DNA of 64,000 bases from an uncultured Ignavibacteriales bacterium (lineage in GTDB: Bacteria > Zixibacteria > MSB-5A5 > GN15 > FEB-12), in assembly GCA_964416195.1 (NCBI GenBank), contig CAYQDB010000001.1, forward strand, positions 26,875-90,874, read 5' to 3'. Position 1 is the stretch's first letter; each line of letters starts with the position of its first letter. A program made the translations under genes and the position numbers. Shown piece by piece: positions 12,500 through 28,200 of this stretch. Under the pieces are notes generated by a model. That model was not told where the DNA came from, ran no database searches, and saw nothing but the letters and a program-made list of their open reading frames with translations.

Positions 12500-14614
12500 C
12501 TACTTCAACAGTATCATCTTCTTAGTATCTACGAATTCACCCGCCTCCAAACGGTACATGTAAACACCACTGGCTGCCTCGCTGCCGTCCCACTGGATAG
12601 TGTGTTCTCCAGCTTCAATCGTACCGTCAACTAAGGTTGCTACTTTCTGGCCCATGATGTTGTAGATTTCCAGTTTCACGTGCGAGGCTGCAGGTAAGGA
12701 GAAACTGATCTCGGTGATCGGGTTGAAGGGGTTGGGGTAGTTGCCAAGCAGAGTAACCGTTGGTGATTCTCCCTTGGAGACAGCAACACCTTCACCTGTC
12801 TTGTGGCTGCCTCGGATCACAACACAATCGATCCCTTCAATGCTTGTGCCGTCGTTAAGCTCTCCGGTAACCGTCAGGGGGATTGTATCCCCGTCGTACA
12901 CTTCACCCAGCGTTTCTACGATCAAGCTCTTATTAAACTTCAGAGTCAGGTCAGGATAGCCGTCGGGGCCAAGTGTATTACACTCACATTCCTCAGCGTC
13001 TTCGCCCACCGGTGTGCTGACGTCTTCGACATTCCAGCGCAGAGCGGGTACTCCTTCTAACATGACTGTCATCGGATCAATGTCTGTGACATTAAAATCT
13101 ACCGTTCCAAGAATTGCTACCGGAAGGACAGCCTTCTTTTTCTTGGGACCGTGAGGCCCTGCCTTCGACGCCACGGGGTTTTCATCGACTTCTCTCAACC
13201 CATGCGTTTTGGGTGCTTTGACGTTGAGGGGATTGGGGCAGGAGCCGGGCTTGATGTCGAGGCTAATCATTACAATTGTGGGTACCATGATATAGACATA
13301 TGCCTTTCCGCATCCGCTGTTGTTCCCTTGTCGTGCTCCGATGATTACATCAGGCAATCCATCATTGTTTACATCCCCGGCACCTGATACAGATATGCCA
13401 AATTCATCGTATTCAGATTCCCCCTCACTCCTAAGTATGCACAACAGAGTACCATCGATGCCGGAATATACGTATGCCCGTCCAGACCAATTATAGGGAT
13501 CATTGTAGCCGTCCGCTCCAACAATTATATCATCATAACCATCACAATTGGCATCTCCCGCGATAGAAACGTCAAGACCAAATTGATCATCAGCGTATTC
13601 GCCCGTGAATATGAGATCTGCATCAGCAGCATTGATTGTAATCGGAAAAGGTTCCGGCCTGCCGTAAAATGCATATGCACGCCCTGCGTAATGTCCGGCT
13701 GTATTATTCCTGTAAGCCCCCACAACAAAATCTACAATGCCATCATTATTAAGATCACCGGCCGATACAGAAAAACCAAAAGCGTCACCTTGAGTTTCGG
13801 CAATCAAATTATATAGTACACTGCCGTCCAAACCTGAATAAACATAGGCCTTAGCTGTTCCATATGGATTCCAAGCTCCAACGAAAAGATCATCATAATC
13901 ATCATTGTTTACATCGCCGGCATCAGAGACTGAGAATCCTAGTCCTCCATCTATAACTGAGCCGGTAAATATCATATCAGCATCTGAAGCGAGAACAGTG
14001 ATGGGAAATGGACCTTCTCCACCATAAAATACATAAGCTCTTCCAGTTCTATTCCCTAAAGCGTCATTGTAGCTGGCTCCGACAATTACATCGGCAAAGC
14101 CGTCATTATTGACATCTCCGGCGCCCGAAATATGATACATGCCGAAACGATCATCTTCTGCTTCGCCTGTAAATGTATATAATAATGATCCGTCAGCGCC
14201 TGAATAGACATAGGCAATACCTGCACCCCAGGACCATATACCAGTCGCTTGCGAAGCTCCAATAATCAGGTCGTCATATCCATCATTATTGACATCCCCG
14301 GCTCCAGAGACTGTCGTACCAAAGAAATCATGATCTGTCGCCCCGGTGAACATGTAAAGTAATGACCCATCCATTCCCGAATAGACATAGGCCCTTCCCG
14401 CGAATAATCCAGCAGCGTCGTTCCCGGGGGCACCGATGATTAAATCGTCAAAACCGTCATCATTGACATCTCCCGCACCTGAAACAGACATACCAAACAC
14501 ATCGTCCAATGCCTCACCAGTGAAGGTATACAATAGTGAACATTGTGGATAAGCGGCTTGCGCGCCAAAAACTAGCAATAATGACAGTACCAACAAATTA
14601 ATTCGCTTTTTCAT
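12500..14614 (-). CDS. Secreted FG-GAP (integrin-alpha-like) repeat protein with C-terminal FlgD-like sorting domain
   Basis: About seven FGxSVSGAGDVNNDGxDDxIIGA repeats, a DIKPGSCPNPLN domain, and NYPNPFNP...DTKKMILLK terminus; signal peptide from ATG 14614. Confidence 0.9.
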   Translation of the reverse strand: MKKRINLLVLSLLLVFGAQAAYPQCSLLYTFTGEALDDVFGMSVSGAGDVNDDGFDDLIIGAPGNDAAGLFAGRAYVYSGMDGSLLYMFTGATDHDFFGTTVSGAGDVNNDGYDDLIIGASQATGIWSWGAGIAYVYSGADGSLLYTFTGEAEDDRFGMYHISGAGDVNNDGFADVIVGASYNDALGNRTGRAYVFYGGEGPFPITVLASDADMIFTGSVIDGGLGFSVSDAGDVNNDDYDDLFVGAWNPYGTAKAYVYSGLDGSVLYNLIAETQGDAFGFSVSAGDLNNDGIVDFVVGAYRNNTAGHYAGRAYAFYGRPEPFPITINAADADLIFTGEYADDQFGLDVSIAGDANCDGYDDIIVGADGYNDPYNWSGRAYVYSGIDGTLLCILRSEGESEYDEFGISVSGAGDVNNDGLPDVIIGARQGNNSGCGKAYVYIMVPTIVMISLDIKPGSCPNPLNVKAPKTHGLREVDENPVASKAGPHGPKKKKAVLPVAILGTVDFNVTDIDPMTVMLEGVPALRWNVEDVSTPVGEDAEECECNTLGPDGYPDLTLKFNKSLIVETLGEVYDGDTIPLTVTGELNDGTSIEGIDCVVIRGSHKTGEGVAVSKGESPTVTLLGNYPNPFNPITEISFSLPAASHVKLEIYNIMGQKVATLVDGTIEAGEHTIQWDGSEAASGVYMYRLEAGEFVDTKKMILLK

Positions 14615-14638
14615 TACGACTTTCCTTTCCAACAAGTT

Positions 14639-14713: not shown

Positions 14714-15157
14714 ATAAGTTCCTCCTCAAAGTTGTGTGATTGTGCTGAAGAATAAGGCCCACCCTCGCATGCAATTGCAGATCATCGTACTCAAATGTTG
14801 TATTGGGTTCATTGCAATCGGCTTGACGGTTAACTGAATCGCCCATTCCAATAACCCTGCGCACGAATCACTCGTTGTTGTTTATTGCTACTCTATTGTT
14901 GAGAAGATAGTCTTTGCTGTGGTCAGTGTCAAGCGAAAAAGGCTGATTTAATGGGGGATTTGGGAGTTTTGGGGTGGCTTTTGTTGGATTTCTCGTCCGC
15001 CAAAGGCCTCCGTGTCGGCCACCAGGCTGGCGGATGGACGGCTCAGGCTGACGGTCTTTGCCGTCGGTTAAGTACTCATGTAACATACTCTCTATCAAAA
15101 AAACAGCAGAAGCTGTGTTTATAATTCAAACTGACGGTATTGAAAAAAGGAAAGACT

Positions 15158-16429
15158 ATGAGTTGGTTACCAAAGAGCCAAAAGAATGACAGTCCTGATT
15201 GGAGTCGGTACAATGGGCTGGCGGCAGCAGTGAGGTCACCGGGCGCGGGTCGTTTCCAGACTGCCGACAGACTGCACTCAATGCTCAAGCTGTCGGTAAG
15301 TGACATACAATCCGGGCGGTATCGTACTCTTTTGTACCGCTTTTTGACCGATAACATCCCGGTCGTCAACGCCTGTATCTGGACCTGGGGCAGACTGTCG
15401 GCAGCTCCGGGGGCGTTCAAGGTCATCGATTGCACAGATGACAAACTCCGGGAGAAAACAGGTCACCGGCTGGAGCAGCTATCGCAACGCCTGTCTGTAA
15501 ATGCCTCGGGTAATCCCGTGGGTCTGGTAACGTTTCTGACCGAACTGTTTACCAGTCTGTACCGAGACGGCGTTTTTGGTGGTTTTTTGACAGTGTCTAA
15601 AGATGCCTCCGGAGTGGATAGGTTTGTCAGTGTTGACGCCACTGACTTGAGGTGGGAAGATACAGACGGCAGCCCACATCTTATCCTGGATCAAGAGACC
15701 GGTAGCCTCAAGCTGAATCGCAGCGATTTCTATTACATTCCTCTCAACGGCGGTCTCTCTGAGCCTCTGGGGCGGTCAATGCTGAAGGCTGTGCCTTTCG
15801 TATCCTTTATTGAGCAGCAACTGGTTGACGATATGCGGCGTGCCAGTCACAACTCTGGTTTCCACCGCCTTCACGTCAAGATCAAGCCGCCGGAGAGGAC
15901 AGCAGGCGAGTCGGACACCGCTTACATAGACCGCATAAACGGCTACTTCGATTCGACCGTGTCGATGATAAAATCGTGCAATGTCGACGACAACCCGGTC
16001 ACGTGGGACAATGTGGCGATTGAACATATCGGTCCGAGTAGTTCCCGTAGCATCACCAATAGCTGGTTTTTCAATCACCGGGCGATGATTGAAGACATCT
16101 GCTCCGGAACTAACCTGTCGCCATTCCTGCTGGGCTATTCCTACGGTGCTACTACCACCTGGTCAGCCTTCAAATTTGACATCGTCATGCGGCAAGTGAG
16201 GTCGGTCCAGGCGGAAGTGGCTCACTTCCTTGAGTGGATAGGCAACATTGATCTGGCTCTGGCTGGGTATAATGCAAAATGCCAGTTCATGTTTGACAAT
16301 ACGTTTGCCTACCAGGCGGCGGATAAGGCGGCTATCGAATCCAGCCGGGTCGACAATATCCTCAAGCTGTATAATGCCGGGCTGGTGGACGAAGAGGCTG
16401 CCCGCGAAAAAGCCGGGGAACTGATATAG
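15158..16429 (+). CDS. Phage portal protein
   Basis: ~420 aa; YRFLTDNIPVVNACI, PLGRSMLKAVPF and ICSGTNLSPFLLG segments match portal architecture; adjacent to TerL; AAAGGA RBS. Confidence 0.75.
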   Translation: MSWLPKSQKNDSPDWSRYNGLAAAVRSPGAGRFQTADRLHSMLKLSVSDIQSGRYRTLLYRFLTDNIPVVNACIWTWGRLSAAPGAFKVIDCTDDKLREKTGHRLEQLSQRLSVNASGNPVGLVTFLTELFTSLYRDGVFGGFLTVSKDASGVDRFVSVDATDLRWEDTDGSPHLILDQETGSLKLNRSDFYYIPLNGGLSEPLGRSMLKAVPFVSFIEQQLVDDMRRASHNSGFHRLHVKIKPPERTAGESDTAYIDRINGYFDSTVSMIKSCNVDDNPVTWDNVAIEHIGPSSSRSITNSWFFNHRAMIEDICSGTNLSPFLLGYSYGATTTWSAFKFDIVMRQVRSVQAEVAHFLEWIGNIDLALAGYNAKCQFMFDNTFAYQAADKAAIESSRVDNILKLYNAGLVDEEAAREKAGELI

Positions 16430-17763
16430 CCAGCGAGATTGACGCCATCGACTGGCGGCGAGGTTTTTTCGATCCTGGTTACTTTGCGGAGGCTGTCTTA
16501 GGAGTCAACCTTCACGATGGTCAGAAGAAATGGCTTGAGAACTCGCACCACCGGGAAAACATTCTGGTGACCGGCAACCGCTGGGGGAAATCGTTTGTAT
16601 CAGCGGTCAAGATCGTCCATCATGCCTTGTACCGTCCCCGCGAACTGAGGTTTGACGCCAGTGGCAAGTATCGAATAGCCACAGCTTCAATAACCCAGGA
16701 TCAGGCCAACATTGTCTTTAACCAGGTCGTCAGACTGGTTAGGCAGTCACCAGTGGTGGAGCCGCTTCTTACGAACCTTATCAGGACCCCTTATCCGAGA
16801 TTAGAATTTGGCAATGGGGCAACTATTGAGGCGCGCTCCACACAGAACCGGGGGGAGTACCTGCTGGGGCATGACTACGACCTTTTCATATTCGATGAAG
16901 TAGCCTTTGAATCCGATCCGGAATACGTGGTCGAAGAGGTTATCCAGATGCGCTTAGCCGACCGGGAGGGGAGGCTTGACTTAGTGTCGACTCCCAACGG
17001 CAGAAACTGGTTCTACCGGCGAGCCAGAGAAGTTATCGAGGGCAAGCGTGACGGCTACTTTCAGTCAGGTGACAGCCGGGAGAATATGTACATCTCACGG
17101 GATTTCCTCGAAGACAGGTTGAAATACTTTTCAGATAGACGGGTTCAGCAGAACATCATGGGTCAGTTCGTCGATTCCGGAGGAGAGATTCTCAAAGGTG
17201 AGTATGTCGACGCTGCTTTGATGCATTATAATGAAATAGAAGGAACGCTTAGAGGGATTAAAGGAACATCGTTCTTGTCGGGGTGGGATCTGGCTCGAAA
17301 GAGAACGGCTACGGTGGGGCTAACGGTTGAAGTAGCCGATGGTTTGGCGAGGGTTGTCTCTCTGGAACGGTTCAGAATGTTTGACTGGAATGTTGTTATT
17401 GAGAAGATCAAGCAGCGGCAATTGGAATACCCTGGTCAGCTTATTATTGACGCTACCGGTCTGGGAGATGTCGTCGTGGAGCAGCTTAAAGAGTTCAATC
17501 CGACAGCGGTTATTTTCACTCCGGCCACTAAAGCGGAACTGCTCACCAATGTCGAGTTGATGCACGCCAGAAATCAGATTGTCTACGAGCGCTGGGAGTT
17601 GCCGGACGGGCCGGGGAAGATTTGGTCGCTGGAGGATGAACTTCGCCAGGCGCGCTGGGATGACAACAATGAGTGTGATGCTTTAATGGCTTTAGCTCTG
17701 GCCCTGTGGCCGCTGCGTAAAAAGAGCGACTTGTCGCCCGCGCCGAGGGTGGGGAGGGTGTGA
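16426..17763 (+). CDS. Terminase large subunit (ATPase + RNase H-like nuclease)
   Basis: Walker A VTGNRWGKS, Walker B FIFDEVAF, coupling motif VSTPNGRNWF, nuclease GWDLAR / IDATGLG / DECDALMA; conserved N-terminus extends upstream of the ORF-track GTG 16567 to about ATA 16426. Confidence 0.9.
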   Translation: MASEIDAIDWRRGFFDPGYFAEAVLGVNLHDGQKKWLENSHHRENILVTGNRWGKSFVSAVKIVHHALYRPRELRFDASGKYRIATASITQDQANIVFNQVVRLVRQSPVVEPLLTNLIRTPYPRLEFGNGATIEARSTQNRGEYLLGHDYDLFIFDEVAFESDPEYVVEEVIQMRLADREGRLDLVSTPNGRNWFYRRAREVIEGKRDGYFQSGDSRENMYISRDFLEDRLKYFSDRRVQQNIMGQFVDSGGEILKGEYVDAALMHYNEIEGTLRGIKGTSFLSGWDLARKRTATVGLTVEVADGLARVVSLERFRMFDWNVVIEKIKQRQLEYPGQLIIDATGLGDVVVEQLKEFNPTAVIFTPATKAELLTNVELMHARNQIVYERWELPDGPGKIWSLEDELRQARWDDNNECDALMALALALWPLRKKSDLSPAPRVGRV

Positions 17764-17849
17764 GGAAGCTTTGCTCGTCAAAAGCGCCCTTCGAAGCTCA
17801 GGATAGGTAGGGCTTTCGATCTACGAATGTCCTACGGAGCAAATGGAGA

Positions 17850-17885
17850 AACGCCCTTTAAGGGGAGGTAGACTTAAAAGGCGTT
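17850..17885. terminator. Stem-loop between convergent TerL and PEP-CTERM genes
   Basis: AACGCCCTTTAAG-loop-CTTAAAAGGCGTT imperfect inverted repeat. Confidence 0.5.
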
Positions 17886-17917
17886 CCGGGGGTAGAGAGG
17901 ATTGGGAAGAACGTTTT

Positions 17918-18241
17918 TTAAGCTTTCCTACGGCGCACCAAACGGATGACACCCAGCCCGGAAGCTAACAGGATCAAGGTCGACGGCTCTGGAATCTCGG
18001 GTGGAGTTGATGGTTCCTGTGAGTCATAGGCCTGGTAGTCGTCGGGAGACTGGCAAGTATTCTGACTATAGGAGTACCAATCGGGTGAGCTATTATTCAG
18101 GCTACCATTTCCGTTCACGTTGCCGGGTGGAATATTCAACCCGTAGACATCGTCAAAAGTCACTGACAGAACCAGAATAATGATAACAAGTCCAAGCAGC
18201 CACTTGAGCCCGTGTCTCTTGTCTCGCATATATACCGTCAT
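17918..18241 (-). CDS. Small PEP-CTERM sorting-domain protein
   Basis: N-terminal hydrophobic helix, N/S/Q/P-rich middle, C-terminal IPEPSTLILLASGLGVIRLVRRRKA; AAAGGA RBS. Confidence 0.85.
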   Translation of the reverse strand: MTVYMRDKRHGLKWLLGLVIIILVLSVTFDDVYGLNIPPGNVNGNGSLNNSSPDWYSYSQNTCQSPDDYQAYDSQEPSTPPEIPEPSTLILLASGLGVIRLVRRRKA

Positions 18242-18498
18242 AAAAAGTCCTTTCTGCGCTTACGTCATCAATCTATTAGCGCCAATACAGTTTGTAGCAA
18301 TGCCCATGCCCGCATGGAACCACAAGTCCGGACGTGGCGGTAACCTGTTAGCTGAACATAAGTTATCAGAATCATATACACTCAATATAAACCGTATTGG
18401 CACCACAATAATTCGCAAGTTTTTGCGCAAAAAGGGGAGAAACCTGTCGTTGAATGCTTACGCTGTACTTTGTTGTAAAGGAAGCAGTTGGAGGTACG

Positions 18499-20016
18499 AT
18501 GGGTGCCAGTTTAGGCAGGATAACAGCTCGTCTGGTGCAGCCGGCAGACGAGGTATTCTCACCAGATTTGGTGGAGTTGATAAACAAGAATATCAACCCG
18601 CCAACGGCCGTGACTAAATCGGATGTCTATATCGGGGCGATGTATGTCGTCTCAGATGAGGTAAACAGCTTCGGAGGAAGATTCCCGGTTGAGGAGCATA
18701 AACATCTGGCCAGTCTGCTTGTCGATTCGCCGGTCATGGCGGGACACCGCAAAGACAGGCTCCCTATAGGGAGGAACTTCCACGCCATCGTGGTTGAGCG
18801 GGATGGAAAGAGCTGGGTAAAAAGCTATTTCTACTGGTTGAAAAGCACCGAAGGAGCCGAGGCGCTGAGGAAGAACATCGATGGCGGTATCTACAAAGAA
18901 TGCTCCATCGGTTTTACATTCCTATTTCCGGAGTGCTCTATCTGCAAAAAAGACATCCGCACTTGCCCCCACGAACCCCTCCAGAGCTACTCGGCGAGTG
19001 GCGATCACGACAGCGTCATCTGCCACTTCAATTACCGTAAGATCGAGCGGGTTTTGGAAACCTCACTGGTCTACCGCGGGTCAGTGCCGGACACGTCAGT
19101 TTCAAGGGAACTAGCAGTTGTCGGTGGCAGAGAAGCAGATGGATACACCGCTCGTCCTGACCGGGTGACACTCATCAACAGCCTTTCGGAACTTGAACCT
19201 AAAGAAGAGTACCTGCTGGTTCCATTCTACGAGTCACTTCCGGTAATGGTTACTCTCAAAAAAGGCACATTGCGCCTGCGTCGACCTAACGGCGAACCGA
19301 TCGGCAGCGAAATATGCTCGGGCTTTCCAATCAGACGCCCGCTTGAAATGGATCGGGCCTACGGGCACCTGGTAGCCTACCGCGGCCGCGAACGCTGTTC
19401 ACTAGAGCAGTTGGAACGGTACCTGACGGGGCGCCCAAGTCCAGTCACGCGGTTGGAGATAAAACTGTTTCCACCTACCGGTCTGGCCGTGGCAAAAGGG
19501 AGTGACGACACTGCACCCAACAGGATCCAACTTATCCGGCACAGCATTACGAGAGTAAGCAATCTCGATAACTCTGCCCGCTCGATCATGACCCGTGACG
19601 GAGTGCGGCTCTGGCCACTGGGCAGCAACCCGTTGCAGTTTGCCGGTTACCAGTACCGCCCATCTAAACAGGATGCAGTCAAAGATGGAAGTTATACACT
19701 GACCTGTAACAGTAGCAGTCCCTTCGCTACTCTTGCGCTCGCGGACTCAGGCCGCATCGAGATGTTTCGGATAAGTCAATTCAACCTGGCCAGACTGCTC
19801 AGAGGGGGGAGGTTTATTGCAGATAAGGCGGAGGTTCGATCAGTTAAGGCGCCGCCGGGTGACAGGAGGACTACCCAGGGACAGATAGTATCGCTGGTCA
19901 ATCGCGATGAAGGAATTGCCGCGGATTTGACGGGACCTTTGTCGGGCAGGTTTATTTTGAGACCGGCGAGGCTTGACGGGCAGAGACGATACTTATTTTA
20001 CAGGATTGCTTCCTAA
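18499..20016 (+). CDS. HK97-type prohead protease fused to degenerate ATP-dependent ligase-like and LigD phosphoesterase-like domains
   Basis: PVMAGH, IYKECSIGF, CSIC...CPH and ETSLVYRGS (protease); C-terminal half carries degenerate ligase motifs in order; GGAGG RBS before ATG 18499. Confidence 0.7.
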   Translation: MGASLGRITARLVQPADEVFSPDLVELINKNINPPTAVTKSDVYIGAMYVVSDEVNSFGGRFPVEEHKHLASLLVDSPVMAGHRKDRLPIGRNFHAIVVERDGKSWVKSYFYWLKSTEGAEALRKNIDGGIYKECSIGFTFLFPECSICKKDIRTCPHEPLQSYSASGDHDSVICHFNYRKIERVLETSLVYRGSVPDTSVSRELAVVGGREADGYTARPDRVTLINSLSELEPKEEYLLVPFYESLPVMVTLKKGTLRLRRPNGEPIGSEICSGFPIRRPLEMDRAYGHLVAYRGRERCSLEQLERYLTGRPSPVTRLEIKLFPPTGLAVAKGSDDTAPNRIQLIRHSITRVSNLDNSARSIMTRDGVRLWPLGSNPLQFAGYQYRPSKQDAVKDGSYTLTCNSSSPFATLALADSGRIEMFRISQFNLARLLRGGRFIADKAEVRSVKAPPGDRRTTQGQIVSLVNRDEGIAADLTGPLSGRFILRPARLDGQRRYLFYRIAS

Positions 20017-20322
20017 CGGATATCGACCGGGCTCAAGATACTGTTGGGGCCACCCTCGAGGTGCAACTTCACCAGCCCTACCGTCAGAGAGTAATACTCC
20101 CTGCTCTGAACAATCAGGGGTAGTAACGGTAATGCCGTATGCGGAGCCAACAGAAACAATCGTGTTTGTCTGGAGGTAGTTAAGGGTGCGGTTGTTTGCA
20201 AACCCGAGCAGGCTGGAGCCGTCGAGATGTTCAAGCGGGTAGACTATTACGTCATCTTCACCGCAACCGAGCAGAGAACATCCAGCTAAACCCCAATTGT
20301 GAAAGCTGGAAAACCTAGACAC
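19993..20322 (-). CDS. Hypothetical small lipoprotein-like protein (possibly truncated)
   Basis: Perfect AAGGAGGT RBS before GTG; LLGC-GEDD lipobox-like motif. Confidence 0.45.
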   Translation of the reverse strand: MSRFSSFHNWGLAGCSLLGCGEDDVIVYPLEHLDGSSLLGFANNRTLNYLQTNTIVSVGSAYGITVTTPDCSEQGVLLSDGRAGEVAPRGWPQQYLEPGRYPLGSNPVK

Positions 20323-20383
20323 AGTACCTCCTTCCCTAAATAGAATGAAGCCCTAAGCATTTCAAAAAACTTGGGAGGACACG

Positions 20384-20695
20384 ATGTATAGTATTCATGG
20401 TGAGCGAGGGATTCAGTTGACCGGACAACTAATCAATCTGCTAACGATCGTCGTTGGAATCGCAGCGGCCTACTTCCTTACTATTCAGTCACTGAAAACT
20501 GAGCTGGAGACCAAGGCGGAAGGCGCCGTGGTGGAAGTGCTTGACAAGAAACTTGCCGGTTTTGAGGTGATCCTGAAGGAGGGAGTCGTTGGTAGAGAGC
20601 AGTTCTTTCGCTTCTCAAAGGATATCGAAGCGCGATTGACGCGAATTGAACAGTATCTAAAAGATCAATCGGGGGAGCACATTGGAAGACCATAA
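20384..20695 (+). CDS. Single-TM coiled-coil protein (holin/XhlA-like accessory)
   Basis: GGGAGG RBS; one TM helix LINLLTIVVGIAAAYFL then a heptad-rich tail. Confidence 0.55.
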   Translation: MYSIHGERGIQLTGQLINLLTIVVGIAAAYFLTIQSLKTELETKAEGAVVEVLDKKLAGFEVILKEGVVGREQFFRFSKDIEARLTRIEQYLKDQSGEHIGRP

Positions 20696-21095
20696 CAAAC
20701 AGAACGCGCATGTCAATGAATTGGCTGATTCGTTGACCGATGACAAAATGTCTCTCATAGATTTCGATCGGCTAAAACAGTACCTGGCAGAAACGGCAAA
20801 GACTCATAATGAACTCCGGGAAGTACGGAGTGATCTCGGCGTTTTGCGCTGTGACTATATCAACCGTATCGGAGGGATGGTCAAGGCGATAGCGGCGGTG
20901 AATCGTCATCCCGACGGATGGGAAACCGCCCTGACGTACTTGGAGAACCTGCCGTCCTTGAGCGCCGGCGAGCTTGTTGAGCAATATCGGAAAACGGCAG
21001 CTCGCTTCCGCGATGCCTTTCCTACTAGCTTTGGATTAGCACCGAATAGGAAACGGGGCAACGACGGGTTTAAGGACCTAAGAGTTTACAAGTAG
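20682..21095 (+). CDS. Putative capsid scaffolding protein
   Basis: Helical coiled coil directly before decoration and MCP genes; GGGGAG RBS before TTG. Confidence 0.5.
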   Translation: MEDHNKQNAHVNELADSLTDDKMSLIDFDRLKQYLAETAKTHNELREVRSDLGVLRCDYINRIGGMVKAIAAVNRHPDGWETALTYLENLPSLSAGELVEQYRKTAARFRDAFPTSFGLAPNRKRGNDGFKDLRVYK

Positions 21096-21244
21096 ACCTA
21101 TAGACTTAGAGGGATCTTACATCCCGATCAGGGGGATACACTCCCGGTCACACTATTGAACGGGGCAGATGAGGACTCGCCTCTGGCGAGCCGCCCACAA
21201 GATCCGCCTCTGGCGGACCGTGCATGAAATGTAAAGGAGATGCT

Positions 21245-21664
21245 ATGACAGTAAGAGACCAAAACCTTGAAGCCATTGCACCTGTGCTGGCTACGTTTAA
21301 GATCAAGCAGACCGGCGGCGTCGATGACCTGAAAGATGCCAATATCGGTGAGCCAGTGACCCTAACCGGGAATAACGAGGTCGGTCCAATTGGCAGCGGA
21401 GATCAGTTGCTGGGCAAGCTGATCGCCCTCACGTTGACCGACAACGATGATGGCGATCGCCTGGCGACCGTTCAGGTTGGCGGCATTTGTCGTCTTCCTA
21501 TCTCCTCAACCTACCCGCAGGTAGGTAACCGTGTTGTCGGCGGAAGTTCCGCCACCGTGAAGCAGGCGCCTACCGTGGCATCGGACCCGGCAGGGGGCAA
21601 CATTGCCAGGGGGACGGTGCTTGAGGTCAACGGAACCACTGACTGTGTGATTCTGCTCAATTAG
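21245..21664 (+). CDS. Head decoration (cement) protein, DUF2190-like
   Basis: ~140 aa, Gly-rich beta protein (GEPVTLTGNNEV, ATVQVGGICRLP) immediately upstream of MCP; AAAGGAG RBS. Confidence 0.7.
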   Translation: MTVRDQNLEAIAPVLATFKIKQTGGVDDLKDANIGEPVTLTGNNEVGPIGSGDQLLGKLIALTLTDNDDGDRLATVQVGGICRLPISSTYPQVGNRVVGGSSATVKQAPTVASDPAGGNIARGTVLEVNGTTDCVILLN

Positions 21665-21676
21665 AAAGGAACAACC

Positions 21677-22780
21677 ATGGACTTTAACAAATTCCTGCAA
21701 TCGGCGGTCTATGCCGGTATGAAGCACGGGCTTGATTCGGACAACATGACCGGCCCGGTCGATTTGGGCCGCGCCGCCGCAATCGAAGTAAACAAGGACC
21801 TCTACCTCGAAGCTGAAGCGCGGGGTCTGTCTCTGTCCGAGCTGCTGGAGCTCGACGAATTCGATCCCACGCCGCCTGGCTGTCCACTTGACGCTTTCGA
21901 ACGCCAGCTTGCCCTGGCAGGGATACGACTGAGCGGCAAGTCGCCTATGACGGTTGAGCAACTCTACCAGCAAGCCCCTACCCTGTTGCCGGAGTTCATG
22001 CTCCGTGAGATCAAGCGAGGACAGGCGATGCGTCCGGAACTCGGCCGCCTGGTAGCCAACACCACCAGCGTCGCCAGCAACAGCTACACGCCTTTCTTCA
22101 TCAATACCGCCGACGACACCAAGTTCTCTATGCGGCCGATCGGCGAGGGGGCTGATATTCCCCAGCTTGTGGTTACCGAACAGACGCACGCGGTCAGTGT
22201 GGCTGACTATGGCCTGGCCCTGAAGACCAGCTACAAGGCTCTTCGCTACCGGACCACTTCCCAGTTCCGAGTGCTGTTGTGGTATATCGGGTTTAAGATC
22301 CAGACTGACAAGATAGGGATGCTGGTCGGCACCATCATCAACGGAGACGGCAATGACAACGCCGCTACGGTGATCAACACTGCCGCCAGCGGAACTCTTA
22401 CCTACGACGATCTAATCAGCCTCTGGTCACAGTTCAGCCCCTTTGAGATGAACACTATCATCTGCCATGTCAACCAGATGAAGGAGATCCTGACTCTGGA
22501 TGAGTTCAAGGACCCGATGGCCGGCTACCGCTTCCAGCAGACGGGCGATCTGTTCAGCCCCTTGGGAGCAACCTTAGTGCGCTCCGACGAGATAGCCACC
22601 GATCTGGTGCTGGGACTGGACAAGCGGTTTGGTGTTGAAGAAGTCATTACCCAGCCGTTGATGGTCGAGTATGACAAGGTCATCGAGCAACGATTCGAAG
22701 AGGCAGTCATCTCGGAATCTGTCACATACGCCAAGGTAATTAAGGAAGCCTCGGTCGTTCTCGACACAGTATGGAGTTAG
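21677..22780 (+). CDS. HK97-fold major capsid protein
   Basis: 367 aa; LLPEF, PIGEGADIP, YGLALKTSYKAL, IINGDGND and VEYDKVIEQ segments typical of HK97-fold MCPs; AAAGGA RBS. Confidence 0.85.
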   Translation: MDFNKFLQSAVYAGMKHGLDSDNMTGPVDLGRAAAIEVNKDLYLEAEARGLSLSELLELDEFDPTPPGCPLDAFERQLALAGIRLSGKSPMTVEQLYQQAPTLLPEFMLREIKRGQAMRPELGRLVANTTSVASNSYTPFFINTADDTKFSMRPIGEGADIPQLVVTEQTHAVSVADYGLALKTSYKALRYRTTSQFRVLLWYIGFKIQTDKIGMLVGTIINGDGNDNAATVINTAASGTLTYDDLISLWSQFSPFEMNTIICHVNQMKEILTLDEFKDPMAGYRFQQTGDLFSPLGATLVRSDEIATDLVLGLDKRFGVEEVITQPLMVEYDKVIEQRFEEAVISESVTYAKVIKEASVVLDTVWS

Positions 22781-22787
22781 TTCTTGT

Positions 22788-22812
22788 GGGGACTCGGGTG
22801 GTCCGAGTCCCC
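22788..22812 (+). terminator. Strong hairpin right after the MCP gene (terminator or stabiliser)
   Basis: GGGGACTCGG-GTGGT-CCGAGTCCCC, 10-bp perfect stem. Confidence 0.7.
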
Positions 22813-22831
22813 CTTAACTTACAGAGGAACG

Positions 22832-24244
22832 ATGCAGAAGAAAATAACTGAGACAACCGGAAGCTACGGTCTTGGGATGCCGCCGGGACGCAAACTCCTG
22901 AGGGTATCTTCCGGTCAGTACGCCGGGCGGCTGGTGGCTATCATGCAAACGTCCTCCGGCGAGATCAAGTACTCCTATGCCGATCGGCCGTACACATCCT
23001 GGTCATCTCTGACTGTAATCGCTACCGCCGCCGCCGATCAGCCGTGCGACTGCGTGATGGACAATGATGGCCATATTCATGTAGTTTATTCTGAGAATTC
23101 CACCGAGTACCTTGTTACCAGGAAACTGACCTTCTCCGGCGGGACCTGGTCAGTGGGGTCCAAAGTGACCGTATACAATGGCTATCCGTCGCGGTATCCC
23201 TCCCTTGCTATCGAGACAGGGGGTAAGCTCTGGGTGAGTTGGACCCGGATCGACGGCGGCGTCCGCTACGCGCATGCCAAGTCATCTACGGATGGCGGGG
23301 CCACCTGGGGCAGCGGGCCATCGGACTCCGGCGACGCTCTGACCGCGGGAGCGTCATCGGCCTACTCCAAAGTCCTCGTTGGACCTAACGATATACACGT
23401 TGTCTACACCAACGGCGGATTGAACCTTTCTATCCGTTCCCAACCGATTGCGGGAGGAAACTGGACAGGTGAGTATAATATAGCCACCGGCACTACATTC
23501 GATCAGCATTTTGACGCTGCCATCTCGTCTGACGGTTCGTTGGGGGTGGTGTTCGACCACGGTCAGTTGAAGTACCGCGAACACAATGGTGTCAGTTGGG
23601 GTTCGGTTGTTACCCTGGACAGCGATGGAGGAGACTTCCCACAGCTACTATTCAGCGATGGCGTGCCCGCTATTGTTTACCTCTCTTCCCTGGCTTCAGA
23701 TCAGGTCCTGGTGAAATGTACAACTCGCGCTACCGGGAGCTTTTCCTCGCCCGCTGTTCTGGACGAGCGTGCCAAGCAGTTCGATTCGGTAACGCTATAC
23801 GACGCCTCCGCCGCCAGCTATGCCGACCTGACCAACGCCGCCGGAAGCAGCAGCACCGCAGATATATATCATCCCAACTCCAGCGTTCTTATCAAGGACA
23901 GCGGCGACATTATCTATCTGGGCATGGACCAGCGCTTCCGCTACGTAAAGTTTCTTCTCTCGACGGCCGGCAGCGGCGGCACGGTTGTTTACAGTTACTG
24001 GGACGGATCCAACTGGAAGGCTTTCACACCTACCGGCGGTTCTTTTAACCTGGACTCAACGGACAAAAACCTGTTGCTGTGGGATGATTACGTGAGTATG
24101 CCCGGCGACTGGCAAAAGAAGCTGGTGAACGGCCAGACAAGGTTCTGGCTGAAAATCGAGGTCGACTCGGCCTTTACCACGGGACCCATCGGAAGTCAGA
24201 TTACGGCTGCATCCGACCTGCAGGCGTTCATTGTAAGGAGGTAG
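22832..24244 (+). CDS. BNR/Asp-box beta-propeller protein, putative virion structural protein
   Basis: Asp-box AKSSTDGGATW, repeated Trp/Gly blades, C-terminal YWDGSNW / FWLKIEV domain; no signal peptide. Confidence 0.6.
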   Translation: MQKKITETTGSYGLGMPPGRKLLRVSSGQYAGRLVAIMQTSSGEIKYSYADRPYTSWSSLTVIATAAADQPCDCVMDNDGHIHVVYSENSTEYLVTRKLTFSGGTWSVGSKVTVYNGYPSRYPSLAIETGGKLWVSWTRIDGGVRYAHAKSSTDGGATWGSGPSDSGDALTAGASSAYSKVLVGPNDIHVVYTNGGLNLSIRSQPIAGGNWTGEYNIATGTTFDQHFDAAISSDGSLGVVFDHGQLKYREHNGVSWGSVVTLDSDGGDFPQLLFSDGVPAIVYLSSLASDQVLVKCTTRATGSFSSPAVLDERAKQFDSVTLYDASAASYADLTNAAGSSSTADIYHPNSSVLIKDSGDIIYLGMDQRFRYVKFLLSTAGSGGTVVYSYWDGSNWKAFTPTGGSFNLDSTDKNLLLWDDYVSMPGDWQKKLVNGQTRFWLKIEVDSAFTTGPIGSQITAASDLQAFIVRR

Positions 24245-24247
24245 AGC

Positions 24248-25057
24248 GTGTCGTACACGAACGTTGAACTGGTCAGGCACCATCTGGTCGCAACCTTCCC
24301 GACCCAGGAGAAGGTTTATGATCAACCGGTGATTCCTGAGAGTGATTATGTCACATTTTTCAACGGGCCGGTTGAGTCTTCGTCGGTTACAGTCAAATCC
24401 ATTCACAGTAACACGCCGACACGGGCGACGATCACTCTCGACAATGAAAAAACCTCACTGGCTTCTTTGCCGCTGGTGCGCGGATCGGTAGTGGTGGCAT
24501 CCGACAGCTCTCTGGGGACTGTGTATGCTGAGAATGTCGATTATATAATCGACTATGTTCTGGGAGACCTGACAATCAAAGAGGGTGGCGGATTGACAAC
24601 AGGTCAAAGCGTTACCGTTTGGTATCAGAGCTACTTTGTATACACCCTCGGGAACGACTACCAGCTCGACGGCAATCGTGGTCGCCTCAAGAGGCTCTCC
24701 GGTGGAGAGATCGCCTCGGGTGAGACAGTGTACCTTGACTACGCGCCGGTCTACCAGAGCTTCAACGAGGAGATTCTCGCTAAAGCGGTGCTGGAGGCCA
24801 ATGGACTGATCGAAAGTGCAGTGGACCCGGACGGCCAATTCGGCGCCGACCCGGTGCTTCAGGCGTGTGCCACCTACCGAGCCTTAGAGATTATCTGCCG
24901 CGCCTCGGCAGCCCGAGAACTTTCCAGTCTGCGAGGAGAAGATCGCACCGCTCTGGCCTGGATAAAGCTGGCCGAGACTTACGCCGAGCGATCGGAGCAA
25001 CTGCTGAGTTCATTCCGCCCGCCGTTCGATGGTCCCACACCGCCGGTGCACAGTTAA
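24248..25057 (+). CDS. Head-tail adaptor-like protein with inserted beta-domains
   Basis: N-terminal YTNVELVR and C-terminal helical AVLEANGLIES...LQACATYRALEI resemble gp6/gp36-type adaptors; two internal YxxxxDY repeats. Confidence 0.5.
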   Translation: MSYTNVELVRHHLVATFPTQEKVYDQPVIPESDYVTFFNGPVESSSVTVKSIHSNTPTRATITLDNEKTSLASLPLVRGSVVVASDSSLGTVYAENVDYIIDYVLGDLTIKEGGGLTTGQSVTVWYQSYFVYTLGNDYQLDGNRGRLKRLSGGEIASGETVYLDYAPVYQSFNEEILAKAVLEANGLIESAVDPDGQFGADPVLQACATYRALEIICRASAARELSSLRGEDRTALAWIKLAETYAERSEQLLSSFRPPFDGPTPPVHS

Positions 25058-25067
25058 AGGAGGACAA

Positions 25068-25442
25068 ATGACTACAGGATTTGAAAGAGTGACGGCTCGC
25101 AGGGCCTGGTTTGTACCCGGTTTCGTCGTCTGGGGGCTTCCTGTTTGGGAGGAGATCGAATTCCTGACCATAGAGAAGGTCGCATCCGACAAGACAGTAC
25201 TGTATGGCTCTCAAGATATTGGTGGCACGGCGCAGGAGGTAACCTTCAGCGACTTAACCGATCATCGGGGAAACCAGTTGCCATCAATTATCGCATCGCC
25301 GCGGGTTATCATTCGTGGTCGAGGCAGAGACTCGGCTTTTATCGTCAGTGAAGAATCCGAAATGAAATTCAAGATTGCCCGCGACCCGGAAGCCGCAGGA
25401 CCAGTAACGGCCGACCTTCTGGTTGTTGAGTTGGGTAGCTAA
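25068..25442 (+). CDS. Hypothetical beta-rich protein (possible fibre-tip/lectin-like domain)
   Basis: AAAGGAGG RBS; 124 aa; VTF...SPRVII...FKI...DLLVVE pattern. Confidence 0.55.
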   Translation: MTTGFERVTARRAWFVPGFVVWGLPVWEEIEFLTIEKVASDKTVLYGSQDIGGTAQEVTFSDLTDHRGNQLPSIIASPRVIIRGRGRDSAFIVSEESEMKFKIARDPEAAGPVTADLLVVELGS

Positions 25443-25443
25443 G

Positions 25444-25740
25444 ATGCCTCGCGCCGGACGGAACTCGGCCAAGTTCCCAGATGATCTGTCAATGCTTGAT
25501 GATCTGATCAGGCGTTACTATCGGGAACTCCTAAGAAGCGTTGAGGAACATGTCAAACTGGGAGATTTTATCAAGATGATCGAATTGAGACGCAAGCTGG
25601 CTCCCAGCGACTCCGAACAGAAGCGGTTCTGGAGAATGCTGGAGAGAATACGTCAAGAAGCACTGCGACAAGACGACGTAAAACCACCCACGCACAAAAA
25701 ACGGGTCTCAAAAAAGCGGCAGACCAGGGAGCCTAAATGA
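25444..25740 (+). CDS. Small helical basic protein, candidate terminase small subunit
   Basis: 98 aa, helical core KLGDFIKMIELRRKL and basic tail KKRVSKKRQ; coupled to neighbours. Confidence 0.4.
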   Translation: MPRAGRNSAKFPDDLSMLDDLIRRYYRELLRSVEEHVKLGDFIKMIELRRKLAPSDSEQKRFWRMLERIRQEALRQDDVKPPTHKKRVSKKRQTREPK

Positions 25741-26507
25741 AAGGAAGGACAATCTGCGCGATCATCATAGCGCTTGTCACACCTGTGTGCAGTATCCCGG
25801 CTGCGGTAGACACGCTGAAAGGGACATCGGATATTGAGGACTGCACTATCTACTCGTGGGCTAACTGCAATTCCGAAATCACGGGTGAAGACTGCCGTCG
25901 GTACAATTCGGGTTCGATTACGAGTCTGCAAGTGGGTGTCTCAGGTGTAAGCACCGAGCGGCGAACATTGCTCAGCCTTCCCGGTTGGGATAGAACCATG
26001 CCAGATTCTTCGAAGTTGTTGCTATACTGCAAGGGTGAGGCCGACGGAGTCGATCGCAAAATTTTCCTCTATCCGGTGACTACGCAGTTTTACGAGGGGA
26101 CGGAGCTGTCGTACAACCTCGGCGATTACCCCGACCCAGACAGTGGAGCCACCTGGAACCATGCCTGGCTCGATGTAGGTGATGGAGATTCTTCCGTTTG
26201 GTCTTCTGCGGGAGGTGACTACACCACTGCCATAGCTTGTACCGTTACAGTAACTGACACCGGTCAGTACTTCGCTTTTGGCGATTTCAACAGGATCCTC
26301 AATTACTGGGATACTTCCGGTAGTGCCTACGGTCTGATTTTGATAAACGAAAATGCTTTCCCAGGCAATACCACCATGAAAACCTTCAACGCCACCGAGG
26401 GCGACAGCGCCAGTGGTCCGTTGGTGATTCTATACTACGGTGGTGCTGCGGTTTCATGGCGGCTTCGTATGATAAAATCTCTTGGGAAGAACCAGCGTGG
26501 TGTTTAA
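25737..26507 (+). CDS. Secreted DNRLRE-domain protein
   Basis: Signal peptide; EDCTIY, ERRTLLSL, ATWNHAW, WSSAGGDY and GPLVILYY motifs. Confidence 0.7.
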   Translation: MKGRTICAIIIALVTPVCSIPAAVDTLKGTSDIEDCTIYSWANCNSEITGEDCRRYNSGSITSLQVGVSGVSTERRTLLSLPGWDRTMPDSSKLLLYCKGEADGVDRKIFLYPVTTQFYEGTELSYNLGDYPDPDSGATWNHAWLDVGDGDSSVWSSAGGDYTTAIACTVTVTDTGQYFAFGDFNRILNYWDTSGSAYGLILINENAFPGNTTMKTFNATEGDSASGPLVILYYGGAAVSWRLRMIKSLGKNQRGV

Positions 26508-26546
26508 TGATATTCATTTTGTGCAAGGTAAGCGATCATTGTTCAA

Positions 26547-26570
26547 GTCACCCTGAGCGGAGTCGAAGGG
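26547..26570. repeat. REP-like half-element GTCACCCTGAGCGGAGTCGAAGGG
   Basis: A degenerate complementary half (CCCTTCGAAGCTCAGGAT) lies at about 17787-17804. Confidence 0.6.
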
Positions 26571-26645
26571 TGATGAAAACAGTCAAAACTCAACCTACAG
26601 ATTAGTCAAAGCAATGGCTATAAGCAAAGGAGGATGTAACAAGAA

Positions 26646-27845
26646 ATGCAAACAGGGCCTATGCGAATCATTGCATTCACAATCGTCTTGATATTAACAG
26701 CGGCAACGTTGTCGGCATCAATTGTCAACAACTCAACCTCATCACCAACCGCCGAGGATTCGCTGTCGTTTGTTTTTTACTCACTGGACAGCATCGGCAA
26801 TCCGACGACAGCGGACTCGCTATATATCCTGGTAACAGGACCAACTGGAACGGTGGTATACAAAGACTCGGTAGCGTCTTCTGACAGCCGCATCACCTCC
26901 ACCACCGTCAGGGGAAAGCAGTTCTACTCGTTTGCGGAGCAGGTGTCCGATATTGACGGTTCGGGCGCTGCCGGACACTATGTTATCACCCTACTGGCCA
27001 AGAAAAACAACGGGGATCTTCTCACTCCGAATACATACTCGTTCCAGATCATCAGCGAGGAGCTGTCCGACCAGATAGCGCTCATAGGAGACTCCGTGTA
27101 TGTGAAGGGTGGGGCAGTCGATTCCAACCGCACGGAAATGGGCGGTTCAGGAGATTCCACGTCCATGGCTCGCTGGGTCTGGAACGCCCCTCAGATAAAC
27201 CACACTACAAGCGGCAGCTTCGGCAAGTATCTCGACACCGAGGTCTCAGGAATAAGCGGCGGCGCGGGGGCCTATTCATTCACGGTCGTAACCTTTGATT
27301 CTTCCGTCAGCCAGACCGTCCCACAGGCAGCCCTCGCGGTGCGTAATGTGAGCCAGACCTCGCTCATAGCAACCGGCAGAACCGGCAACGAGGGCACGGC
27401 AATGTTTAACCTCGATGCCGATAGCTTTGTCGTAGTGGCGACAGCCCCGGGCTATTCCTTTGACGCCTACGACACCATCGTCGTCAGCGGGACGGGAAGC
27501 GATACCATCTTCGGAGACCAGTTTGATCCGGGGTCTCCATCAGCACCGCAGTTGTGTCGCGTGTATGGTTTCCTGTACGATATCACCGGGCAGCCGGAAG
27601 AGGGGGCTTCGGTAACAGCATGTCTTCCTTCAGGGGTGGTGCAATATGTAGTAGTGGTTGTGTCACCCTACTCAGTTTCAACAACTACCGACAGCTCCGG
27701 TTACTTCTACCTCGACCTGATACCATCGGACTCACTCATCCCCCCCGGCACTAAGTACGAGTTTACGATAAGCCGTACCGATGGAACGATTCTCAGGCAA
27801 CGCCTAACAGTGCCTGATTCTACGCAATGGCGACTGACATGGTAG
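26646..27845 (+). CDS. Secreted beta-rich protein resembling phage fibre/structural proteins, with carboxypeptidase-regulatory-like domains
   Basis: Signal peptide MRIIAFTIVLILTAATLSA; VWNAPQINHTTSGSFGKYLD and TTDSSGYFYLDLIP motifs. Confidence 0.6.
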   Translation: MQTGPMRIIAFTIVLILTAATLSASIVNNSTSSPTAEDSLSFVFYSLDSIGNPTTADSLYILVTGPTGTVVYKDSVASSDSRITSTTVRGKQFYSFAEQVSDIDGSGAAGHYVITLLAKKNNGDLLTPNTYSFQIISEELSDQIALIGDSVYVKGGAVDSNRTEMGGSGDSTSMARWVWNAPQINHTTSGSFGKYLDTEVSGISGGAGAYSFTVVTFDSSVSQTVPQAALAVRNVSQTSLIATGRTGNEGTAMFNLDADSFVVVATAPGYSFDAYDTIVVSGTGSDTIFGDQFDPGSPSAPQLCRVYGFLYDITGQPEEGASVTACLPSGVVQYVVVVVSPYSVSTTTDSSGYFYLDLIPSDSLIPPGTKYEFTISRTDGTILRQRLTVPDSTQWRLTW

Positions 27846-27897
27846 AGTATCTCGGTAAAAGATAAACATTAACGATTTCAACAGAAGGAGGAACAAA

Positions 27898-28200
27898 GTG
27901 GAAGCACTATTGTCGGATCCGGGTTCATGGGTCGGTATATTGGGCTCAGTGGCGATGTTGCTGGCCGGCTTTGCCGCAAACAAGTATGTCATTCCCTTCC
28001 TCAAGGTAGGCAGAAGGCAGCAATACGCCCATTTCATTGCCACGATTGCTGATGAAGTAACCGATGATCTGAGGAACAAATACCCGGACAAGAAGTGGCT
28101 CAAGCACCTTGACGAGGCGGTCGACCGTTTGATTGCTATTTGCGGAATATCGTCGGAGATCGCCAGACGGGCGATCAGCGCTGCAGCGGCTCGCAAGTAG
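27898..28200 (+). CDS. Holin-like membrane protein (LL-H-like architecture)
   Basis: AAGGAGG RBS, GTG start, one N-terminal TM then helical charged tail; last gene of the cluster. Confidence 0.55.
   Translation: MEALLSDPGSWVGILGSVAMLLAGFAANKYVIPFLKVGRRQQYAHFIATIADEVTDDLRNKYPDKKWLKHLDEAVDRLIAICGISSEIARRAISAAAARK

Follow-up and report, generated by a model that had tools for sequence, protein, structure and literature searches.

Here, we analyse a 64,000-nt stretch of contig CAYQDB010000001.1 (positions 26,875 to 90,874 of the forward strand; assembly GCA_964416195.1), from a bacterium labelled as an uncultured member of the Ignavibacteriales and placed in the Zixibacteria by GTDB. We call the whole stretch the window and use its coordinates throughout; L###, P#### and G### denote homologous loci, public protein clusters and genomes, respectively. 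The window carries a portal gene followed directly by the gene of the terminase large subunit, TerL, whose conserved N-terminus is preceded by no canonical start codon. Comparison with related loci indicates that TerL is probably initiated at AUA 16426, in a manner coupled to the termination of portal translation, and that the junction is an ATAG/ATAA variant of the ATGA overlap. The features that bear on this reading are as follows.

15158..16429, plus strand: portal gene; its first ATG is at 15158, there is a TTG at 15140, and its C-terminus reads ...AREKAGELI, then TAG.
16372..16374, plus strand: upstream TAA closing the TerL frame, which then runs open from 16375 to 17763.
16415..16419, plus strand: Shine-Dalgarno (SD)-like GGGGA, within the 3′ end of the portal gene and 6 nt 5′ of the ATA.
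16426..16428, plus strand: proposed AUA start of TerL, which overlaps the portal stop as ATATAG, with the bases TA shared.
16427..16429, plus strand: portal stop TAG; in related loci, the stop mostly lies 146 nt 5′ of the Walker A Gly codon.
16426..17763, plus strand: full-length TerL coding sequence as proposed, 445 codons, based on Terminase_6N, PHROG 2, the 445-aa orthologues and a fold match.
16429..16566, plus strand: N-terminal 46 codons with no canonical start ahead of them; motif DW.RG...YFA...LH.GQ..WL...EN.L.
16438..16440, plus strand: in-frame ATT, a near-cognate candidate for an alternative start.
16447..16449, plus strand: in-frame ATC, a case similar to the ATT.
16567..16569, plus strand: GTG, the first canonical start, inside Walker A; the choice of gene callers, giving 398 aa.

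The portal gene matches PHROG 3753 (E 4e-21) and PHROG 30703 (E 8e-12), and its 3′ end reads ...GAA CTG ATA TAG. The frame of TerL lies one base back relative to that of the portal gene, and from 16375 to the GTG at 16567 it contains no ATG, GTG or TTG at all. This GTG encodes Val48, two residues ahead of the first Gly in VTGNRWGKS, of which GNRWGKS (residues 50–56) is the Walker A motif. TerL is recognised both by Pfam Terminase_6N (PF03237; 35 bits, against a cut-off of 22) and by PHROG 2 (E 7.7e-35), the latter match beginning at residue 44 as counted from 16375, which is 21 residues ahead of the GTG. The proposed full-length protein can be aligned over its whole length with close orthologues of 445 aa. 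An original prediction, made by a model from the letters of this stretch, had described the open frame, the GTG within Walker A, the ATA/TAG overlap and the GGGGA, and in all of these it was correct base for base.

Several kinds of observation suggest that the segment ahead of the GTG is part of the protein. Hundreds of TerL homologues were found, mostly in Zixibacteria genome bins, and an alignment of 28 of them contains 10 invariant columns before the GTG, namely W10, L25, H30, G32, Q33, W36, L37, E44, N45 and L47. The first 7–8 residues of the proposed protein are not conserved. Between loci that, like the window, have no canonical start, the ratio of nonsynonymous to synonymous substitution rates (dN/dS) is 0.10–0.27 at dS of about 1–2 over the stretch of 48 codons that leads from the junction to Walker A; the following 200 codons give 0.03–0.08 in the same comparison. 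Judged by these ratios, the upstream segment is evidently under purifying selection. In the AlphaFold model of TerL, the predicted local distance difference test score (pLDDT) averages 70 overall and is 74–88 over residues 11–40. Helices are modelled at residues 10–15, 17–23 and 31–39, and strand β1 at 44–47, just ahead of the P-loop. From residues 11–14 onward, the model aligns with the P74-26 TerL ATPase from residues 2–4 onward (Z about 12), while residues 252–431 match the RNase H-like nuclease of G20c TerL (Z 19.1, root-mean-square deviation 2.6 Å over 160 residues). The Walker A Gly follows the invariant Gln by 17 residues, a spacing that would match that of the adenine-binding Gln in T4 gp17 to within one residue. 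Walker A, β1 and the N-terminal helices expected of a TerL are thus all present in the product, provided that translation begins at or near the ATA. From the alignment and the model, the upstream segment is evidently coding and predicted to be structurally required. The suggestion that this text represents a normal TerL N-terminus, which was to be abandoned if the segment proved variable, accordingly agrees with the profile match upstream of the GTG, with the conservation and with the modelled fold.

Our set of loci, 69 taken from genomes of species representatives and 70 from metagenomes, contained 88 that were unique and informative after removal of duplicates. These loci are kin, so the p-values given here overstate independence and the figures are indicative. 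In 76 of the 88, the portal stop and TerL abut as they do in the window: the Walker A Gly codon usually follows the stop at a distance of 146 nt, and TerL is read one base back. It follows from this geometry that the junction codon, here called codon 0, is made up of three bases, the last of the final sense codon in the portal gene and the first two of its stop. The states of this codon among the 76 abutting loci are listed below.

ATA, no canonical start before the conserved DW motif: 27.
ATA, with a canonical start within a few codons: 18.
TTG, itself a canonical start: 5.
GTG, itself a canonical start: 3.
GTA, CTA, TTA or CTG, with a canonical start at −4 to +7 codons: 18.
TTA, no canonical start: 3.
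CTG, no canonical start: 2.

ATA is therefore the commonest state (45/76), and it occupies codon 0 in 27 of the 32 abutting loci that are startless in the canonical sense. It is also the sole near-cognate codon that loci without a canonical start have in common, and in seven of them (L008, L013, L024, L026, L029, L031, L042) no other near-cognate codon is present. Where relatives use a canonical start, it is often found at this very position: the codon aligned to the ATA is GTG in L027, L030 and L043, TTG in L041, L044, L088 and L089, and ATG both in L071 and in the 445-aa proteins P0003, P0005, P0007 and P0008 (MTTDV.AIDW). The alignment of orthologues that the original prediction had called for thus finds the ATA conserved and canonical starts at the same codon, and it does not place the starts of orthologues at the Walker A Val. 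The same arrangement is found in dozens of other species. The remaining startless loci comprise L017, L020 and L084, in which ATT precedes a TTA junction by one codon and ATA follows it by two, and L034 and L045, in which a CTG junction is formed with a TGA stop. In family f3, which belongs to the same order, two loci (L145 in G035 and L163 in G071) show a tcaTAG junction with an ATA in the TerL frame and no canonical start; their N-terminal linker is longer, with the stop 173–215 nt before Walker A. More distant families have a short spacer, followed by ATG, TTG or GTG.

The codon usage at the portal 3′ end points to selection on codon 0. Among the 67 cases in which the final portal codon is of the form NTN (N, any base), it is NTA in 42, as compared with 6.8% (168/2465) of the NTN codons among the 120 that precede it in the portal genes of these loci (binomial p 3e-32). 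The adjacent portal Leu codon favours G (31/47). Even the closest pairs of loci show saturation at synonymous sites, so the preference for NTA reflects selection rather than inheritance. Furthermore, among loci with a TAR stop (R, purine), ATA is commoner where a canonical start is lacking than where one is present (27/30 versus 18/32; p 0.004). By these counts, the A that creates the ATA appears to be strongly selected.

A similar picture emerges for the ribosome-binding site. An SD-like site lies 5–8 nt upstream of codon 0, and we scored its pairing over the 15 nt ending 4 nt before this codon. The usual anti-SD sequence was assumed; the 2.93-Mb genome bin (G000; 98% complete) contains no recognisable 3′ end of 16S rRNA. 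The 27 ATA-only loci give a mean of −7.4 kcal/mol, with 89% at −6 or better, as compared with −2.8 kcal/mol and 14% for background windows in the body of the portal gene (Mann-Whitney p 5e-14). In loci whose start lies 3–4 codons upstream, the mean at codon 0 is −3.5 kcal/mol, and 5% reach −6 or better. Within this genome, an SD-like motif occurs at 62% of ATGA junctions. Folding of the RNA from 16385 to 16485 gave no indication of a hairpin that would sequester the start (z = −1.0).

Loci in which the overlap has been lost offer what amounts to a natural set of variants. All 12 non-abutting loci have a canonical start, versus 44 of the 76 abutting ones (Fisher p 0.003). The window's own clade of eight, which is well supported, shows the same association: the six abutting loci are all ATA-only, and the two non-abutting ones both use ATG (p 0.036). 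L071 is the clearest example. With branch lengths of 0.01–0.04 to L072 and L077, both ATA-only, and a portal 83% identical to that of the window, it carries a 330-nt insertion (L071:1174-1500) between two copies of the junction, about 45 nt of which are duplicated. The portal end retains GGTATAG, followed after the stop by what remains, in decayed form, of the old TerL 5′ end; the start of the functional TerL reads GGTATGA, with ATG at the same codon. The insertion also contains hairpin-forming repeats and an antisense open reading frame (ORF) of 113 aa, and no match to it was found in Rfam.

Taken together, these observations are in line with the proposal of the original prediction, namely a weak ATA start coupled to the portal stop: canonical starts occur at the same codon in relatives, the ATA is conserved, an SD-like site is present and the N-terminus is needed. 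In the mechanism that we envisage, AUAUAG would have the same 4-nt geometry as an AUGA overlap, with A replacing G. Ribosomes finishing the portal gene would terminate at UAG; these ribosomes, or others recruited by the SD-like GGGGA, would then restart one base back on the AUA with initiator tRNA, producing the full-length 445-residue terminase at a small, fixed fraction of portal synthesis. We infer that initiator tRNA decodes the AUA and that initiation depends on translation of the portal gene. The purpose of such an arrangement may be a low dosage of terminase relative to portal. Termination-reinitiation has been shown for AUGA overlaps (Huber et al. 2019, PMC6728339; reviewed in PMC12548453). 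In S. aureus, the AUA starts of ccpN and citZ work at about 10% of the level of AUG, and at up to 30% for ccpN in rich medium, and infC starts at AUA as well (PMC13009471).

AUA starts do not seem to be a general habit of this organism. A genome scan of 4-nt overlaps, with ORFs of at least 150 codons, returned 12 ATA and 11 CTG "orphans", most of which look like shadow ORFs. Two ATA/CTG overlap candidates with Pfam hits were set aside: C47, NuoF-like, has a canonical GTG 55 codons upstream, and C4, a SIS protein, has a canonical ATG downstream. With the orphans being either spurious or supplied with canonical starts, TerL is the sole clear case in the genome. The initiator tRNA is ordinary, its anticodon stem having three G-C pairs and its 1:72 position being mismatched; no additional initiator-like tRNA was found in this genome. 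Nothing here suggests a general relaxation of start selection.

Several points weigh against initiation at the AUA. All of the support for it is comparative, and it comes from loci whose relatedness, as mentioned, inflates the apparent significance of the counts. The window's own SD-like site is among the weaker ones, with GGGGA pairing at −5.7 kcal/mol to the assumed anti-SD. In 18 loci, ATA is kept despite a canonical codon nearby, so that the conserved A might have a role other than, or additional to, that of a start. A re-pairing mechanism, taken up below, would equally predict that NTA is conserved ahead of TAR. Finally, AUA is a poor initiator in model bacteria. In E. coli, it works at 1–2% of the level of AUG (bioRxiv 10.1101/063800).

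The re-pairing mechanism would be a +2 slip (equivalent to the −1 frame) at a "shifty stop". While UAG occupied the A site, tRNA-Ile, paired in the P site to the last portal AUA, would re-pair two bases downstream, moving from AUA to the overlapping AUA, and a low level of portal-TerL fusion would result, with AGELIASEIDAIDWR as the peptide spanning the portal C-terminus and TerL. AUAUAG in the window does permit perfect AUA-to-AUA re-pairing, the slip accounts for NTA before TAR (42/67), and TerL is in the −1 frame of the portal gene in nearly all loci. The SD-like element could even act as a stimulator of frameshifting, as such elements do in prfB and dnaX. We nonetheless consider the slip improbable. 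ATA is the last portal codon in just 14 of the 45 loci with an ATA junction; the codons found elsewhere, CTA, TTA, GTA and, in L033, even AAA, would give a mismatch at position one or two, and neither the CTG-only loci (L034, L045) nor the TTA-only loci fit re-pairing. A separate TerL is expected in the 44 abutting and 12 non-abutting loci that have canonical starts. In L071, fusion is impossible, since 330 nt lie between the stop and the TerL start and the frame after the stop soon meets TGA, yet its TerL is 87% identical. We also know of no precedent for a portal-TerL fusion, which we count against the slip. An elaboration of this idea is that the NUA-UAR junction is a +2 recoding site by which a few terminases would be tethered covalently to the portal ring in a domesticated capsid system spanning the phylum, with relatives that use canonical starts having lost this mode; we hold this to be quite a long shot. 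Two other frameshift sites were considered and rejected. A shift at the T6 run (16465-16470), entered from the out-of-frame TTG 16439, is at odds with the conserved DW.RG motif, which is already in the TerL frame ahead of the run; nor is the run itself conserved. A −1 slip at GAAAAAG (16406-16412) fails on the TerL-frame stop found 3–4 codons before the junction in L004-L006, L011, L042 and L065.

Initiation may instead occur at ATT 16438, at ATC 16447 or at several weak codons jointly, rather than specifically at the ATA. Both codons are in frame and precede the DW motif, which is conserved; as the first 7–8 residues are unconserved, the protein should be able to do with an N-terminus that is a little shorter. 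AUU and AUC also initiate about as well as AUA in E. coli (10.1101/063800). We think this unlikely on the comparative evidence. The seven loci named above have the ATA at codon 0 alone; the SD-like site is 6 nt from codon 0, 18 nt from ATT and 27 nt from ATC, a spacing that favours codon 0; and selection on the A at position −1 is left unexplained. ATT 16438, which the original prediction had offered as an alternative, is a poor one because it is not conserved in relatives, and the ATC fares no better in this respect.

A further alternative is that TerL is made from GTG 16567 as a protein of 398 aa, or else that the gene has lost its start and is decaying. This GTG is the first canonical codon in the frame, and gene callers do pick it (P0004). 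The resulting product, however, would lack β1, the three helices, the HxGQ motif and all 10 invariant residues, and the upstream segment is under purifying selection. Decay is hard to reconcile with an intact gene at dN/dS 0.03–0.08 that 144 of the 151 genomes sampled from the phylum carry as a single copy, or with a startless state kept across lineages that are just 61–66% identical. We regard either version as very unlikely. As to the databases, gene callers have cut P0004, P0010, P0015, P0017 and P0030 to 398–436 aa by way of a downstream GTG, TTG or ATG, and some of the chosen starts lie inside or just ahead of Walker A. Shortened public versions of TerL include proteins of 398 (P0004, the called form of the window protein), 400, 421 and 424 aa. 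As a consequence of the callers' choice of downstream codons, many database entries lack part of the ATPase domain.

As for the accuracy of the ATA, which the original prediction had asked to be checked in the reads, we compared Logan contigs from four salt-marsh runs over 16200-16800, and these show ATA, not ATG: a contig from X7, a different sample, spans 16258-16499 with 0 differences, and contigs from X1, a run that is possibly the source of the window, carry the same sequence. It would take one base to restore an ATG, but a sequencing or assembly error can be dismissed with near certainty, since the separate sample is identical across the site, ATA occupies this codon in 45 of the 76 abutting unique loci, drawn from unrelated assemblies, and an ATG here would turn the portal stop TAG into GAG and destroy it.

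We return to initiation at AUA 16426 and to the setting in which it would operate. TerL is single-copy in this genome and apparently occurs once in each of the 144 genomes noted above, G085 having two fragments on separate contigs. Its sequence identity follows taxonomy, at 60–84% within a family, 50–61% within an order and 38–51% within a class. This pattern fits a vertically inherited, domesticated capsid and packaging module, which would occupy 15158-28200 of the window. Downstream, at 21677-22780, lies the gene of the major head protein (PHROG 3922, E 4e-61); a small terminase gene was not identified adjacent to TerL. Directly upstream of the capsid cluster, on the minus strand at 12500-14635, is a gene for a 711-aa protein that has FG-GAP repeats and a C-terminal sorting domain for type IX secretion. 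Two TerL matches, in copies that are otherwise conserved, contain an internal TAA (G076:C82:12201-13517 and G143:C6:16231-17247) and may represent pseudogenes or assembly errors. Bins labelled as Ignavibacteriales, a Thermoplasmata archaeon, Calditrichota and Deferrimicrobium (L001, L012, L024 and L002) carry a terminase of the Zixibacteria type, at 72–84% identity; these contigs are probably mislabelled or mis-binned.

If our reading is true, the junction represents natural, evolutionarily stable AUA initiation inside a stop/start overlap (AUAA/AUAG). Such a class would be invisible to gene callers, and also to surveys that count ATGA and TGATG alone; the overlap surveys cited above covered these two types only (PMC6728339, PMC12548453). 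It would also provide a simple way of fixing terminase output at a small fraction of portal output. Additionally, the loci form a sequence set with which to ask whether post-termination ribosomes tolerate near-cognate starts better than free 30S subunits do. Our literature search found no paper on ATAA/ATAG stop/start overlaps, on this terminase or on a capsid element of Zixibacteria.

How does the junction compare with known systems? Like ATGA overlaps (PMC6728339, PMC12548453), it involves a same-strand pair in which the last two bases of the start are shared with the stop and the SD-like site lies inside the upstream gene, and the pair encodes interacting partners, here portal and terminase. 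It differs in having ATAG or ATAA as the tetranucleotide, and hence a near-cognate start, AUA, and in that the coupling is inferred from natural variants. In the window, the two genes overlap by 4 nt on the same strand (ATAG, 16426-16429), and the overlap contains no ATG, GTG or TTG; with ATA as the overlap codon, the locus is a variant rather than a standard member of the ATGA type. Programmed +1/+2 frameshifts of the prfB type, or shifty stops (PMC5009743), likewise place an A-site stop beside a re-pairable codon, with an SD-like element upstream. Here, by contrast, the potential for re-pairing, perfect in the window, does not appear to be conserved among relatives, and those with canonical starts or a spacer are expected to make free TerL.

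The protein resembles the TerL of tailed phages (P74-26/G20c, T4 gp17, Sf6 gp2, D6E, HK97) in having an ASCE (additional strand, catalytic glutamate) ATPase with N-terminal helices and β1, followed by an RNase H-like nuclease. Unlike these, it is chromosomal, it is kept as a single copy in nearly all of the sampled genomes of the phylum (144/151), and its gene order is portal, then TerL. The closest parallels to its start are infC, ccpN and citZ (AUA) and cvfC1 (AUU) in S. aureus (PMC13009471), and infC and pcnB (AUU) in E. coli (10.1101/063800), in all of which a conserved non-canonical start sits behind an SD. As in the S. aureus genes that start at AUA, a conserved AUA would be the sole start of an N-terminus belonging to an essential domain, presumably with low expression. 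The window locus has the marks of a conserved AUA start: no canonical start precedes the required N-terminus, the codon aligns with canonical starts in relatives and an SD-like site lies at functional spacing. The S. aureus and E. coli cases follow untranslated leaders, have a strong or extended SD and were mapped by ribosome profiling, whereas the AUA of TerL lies inside an overlapping stop, in a phage-derived gene with an ordinary SD, and is supported by comparative evidence. Non-canonical starts and overlap-coupled gene pairs are each already known; what would be new here is their combination.

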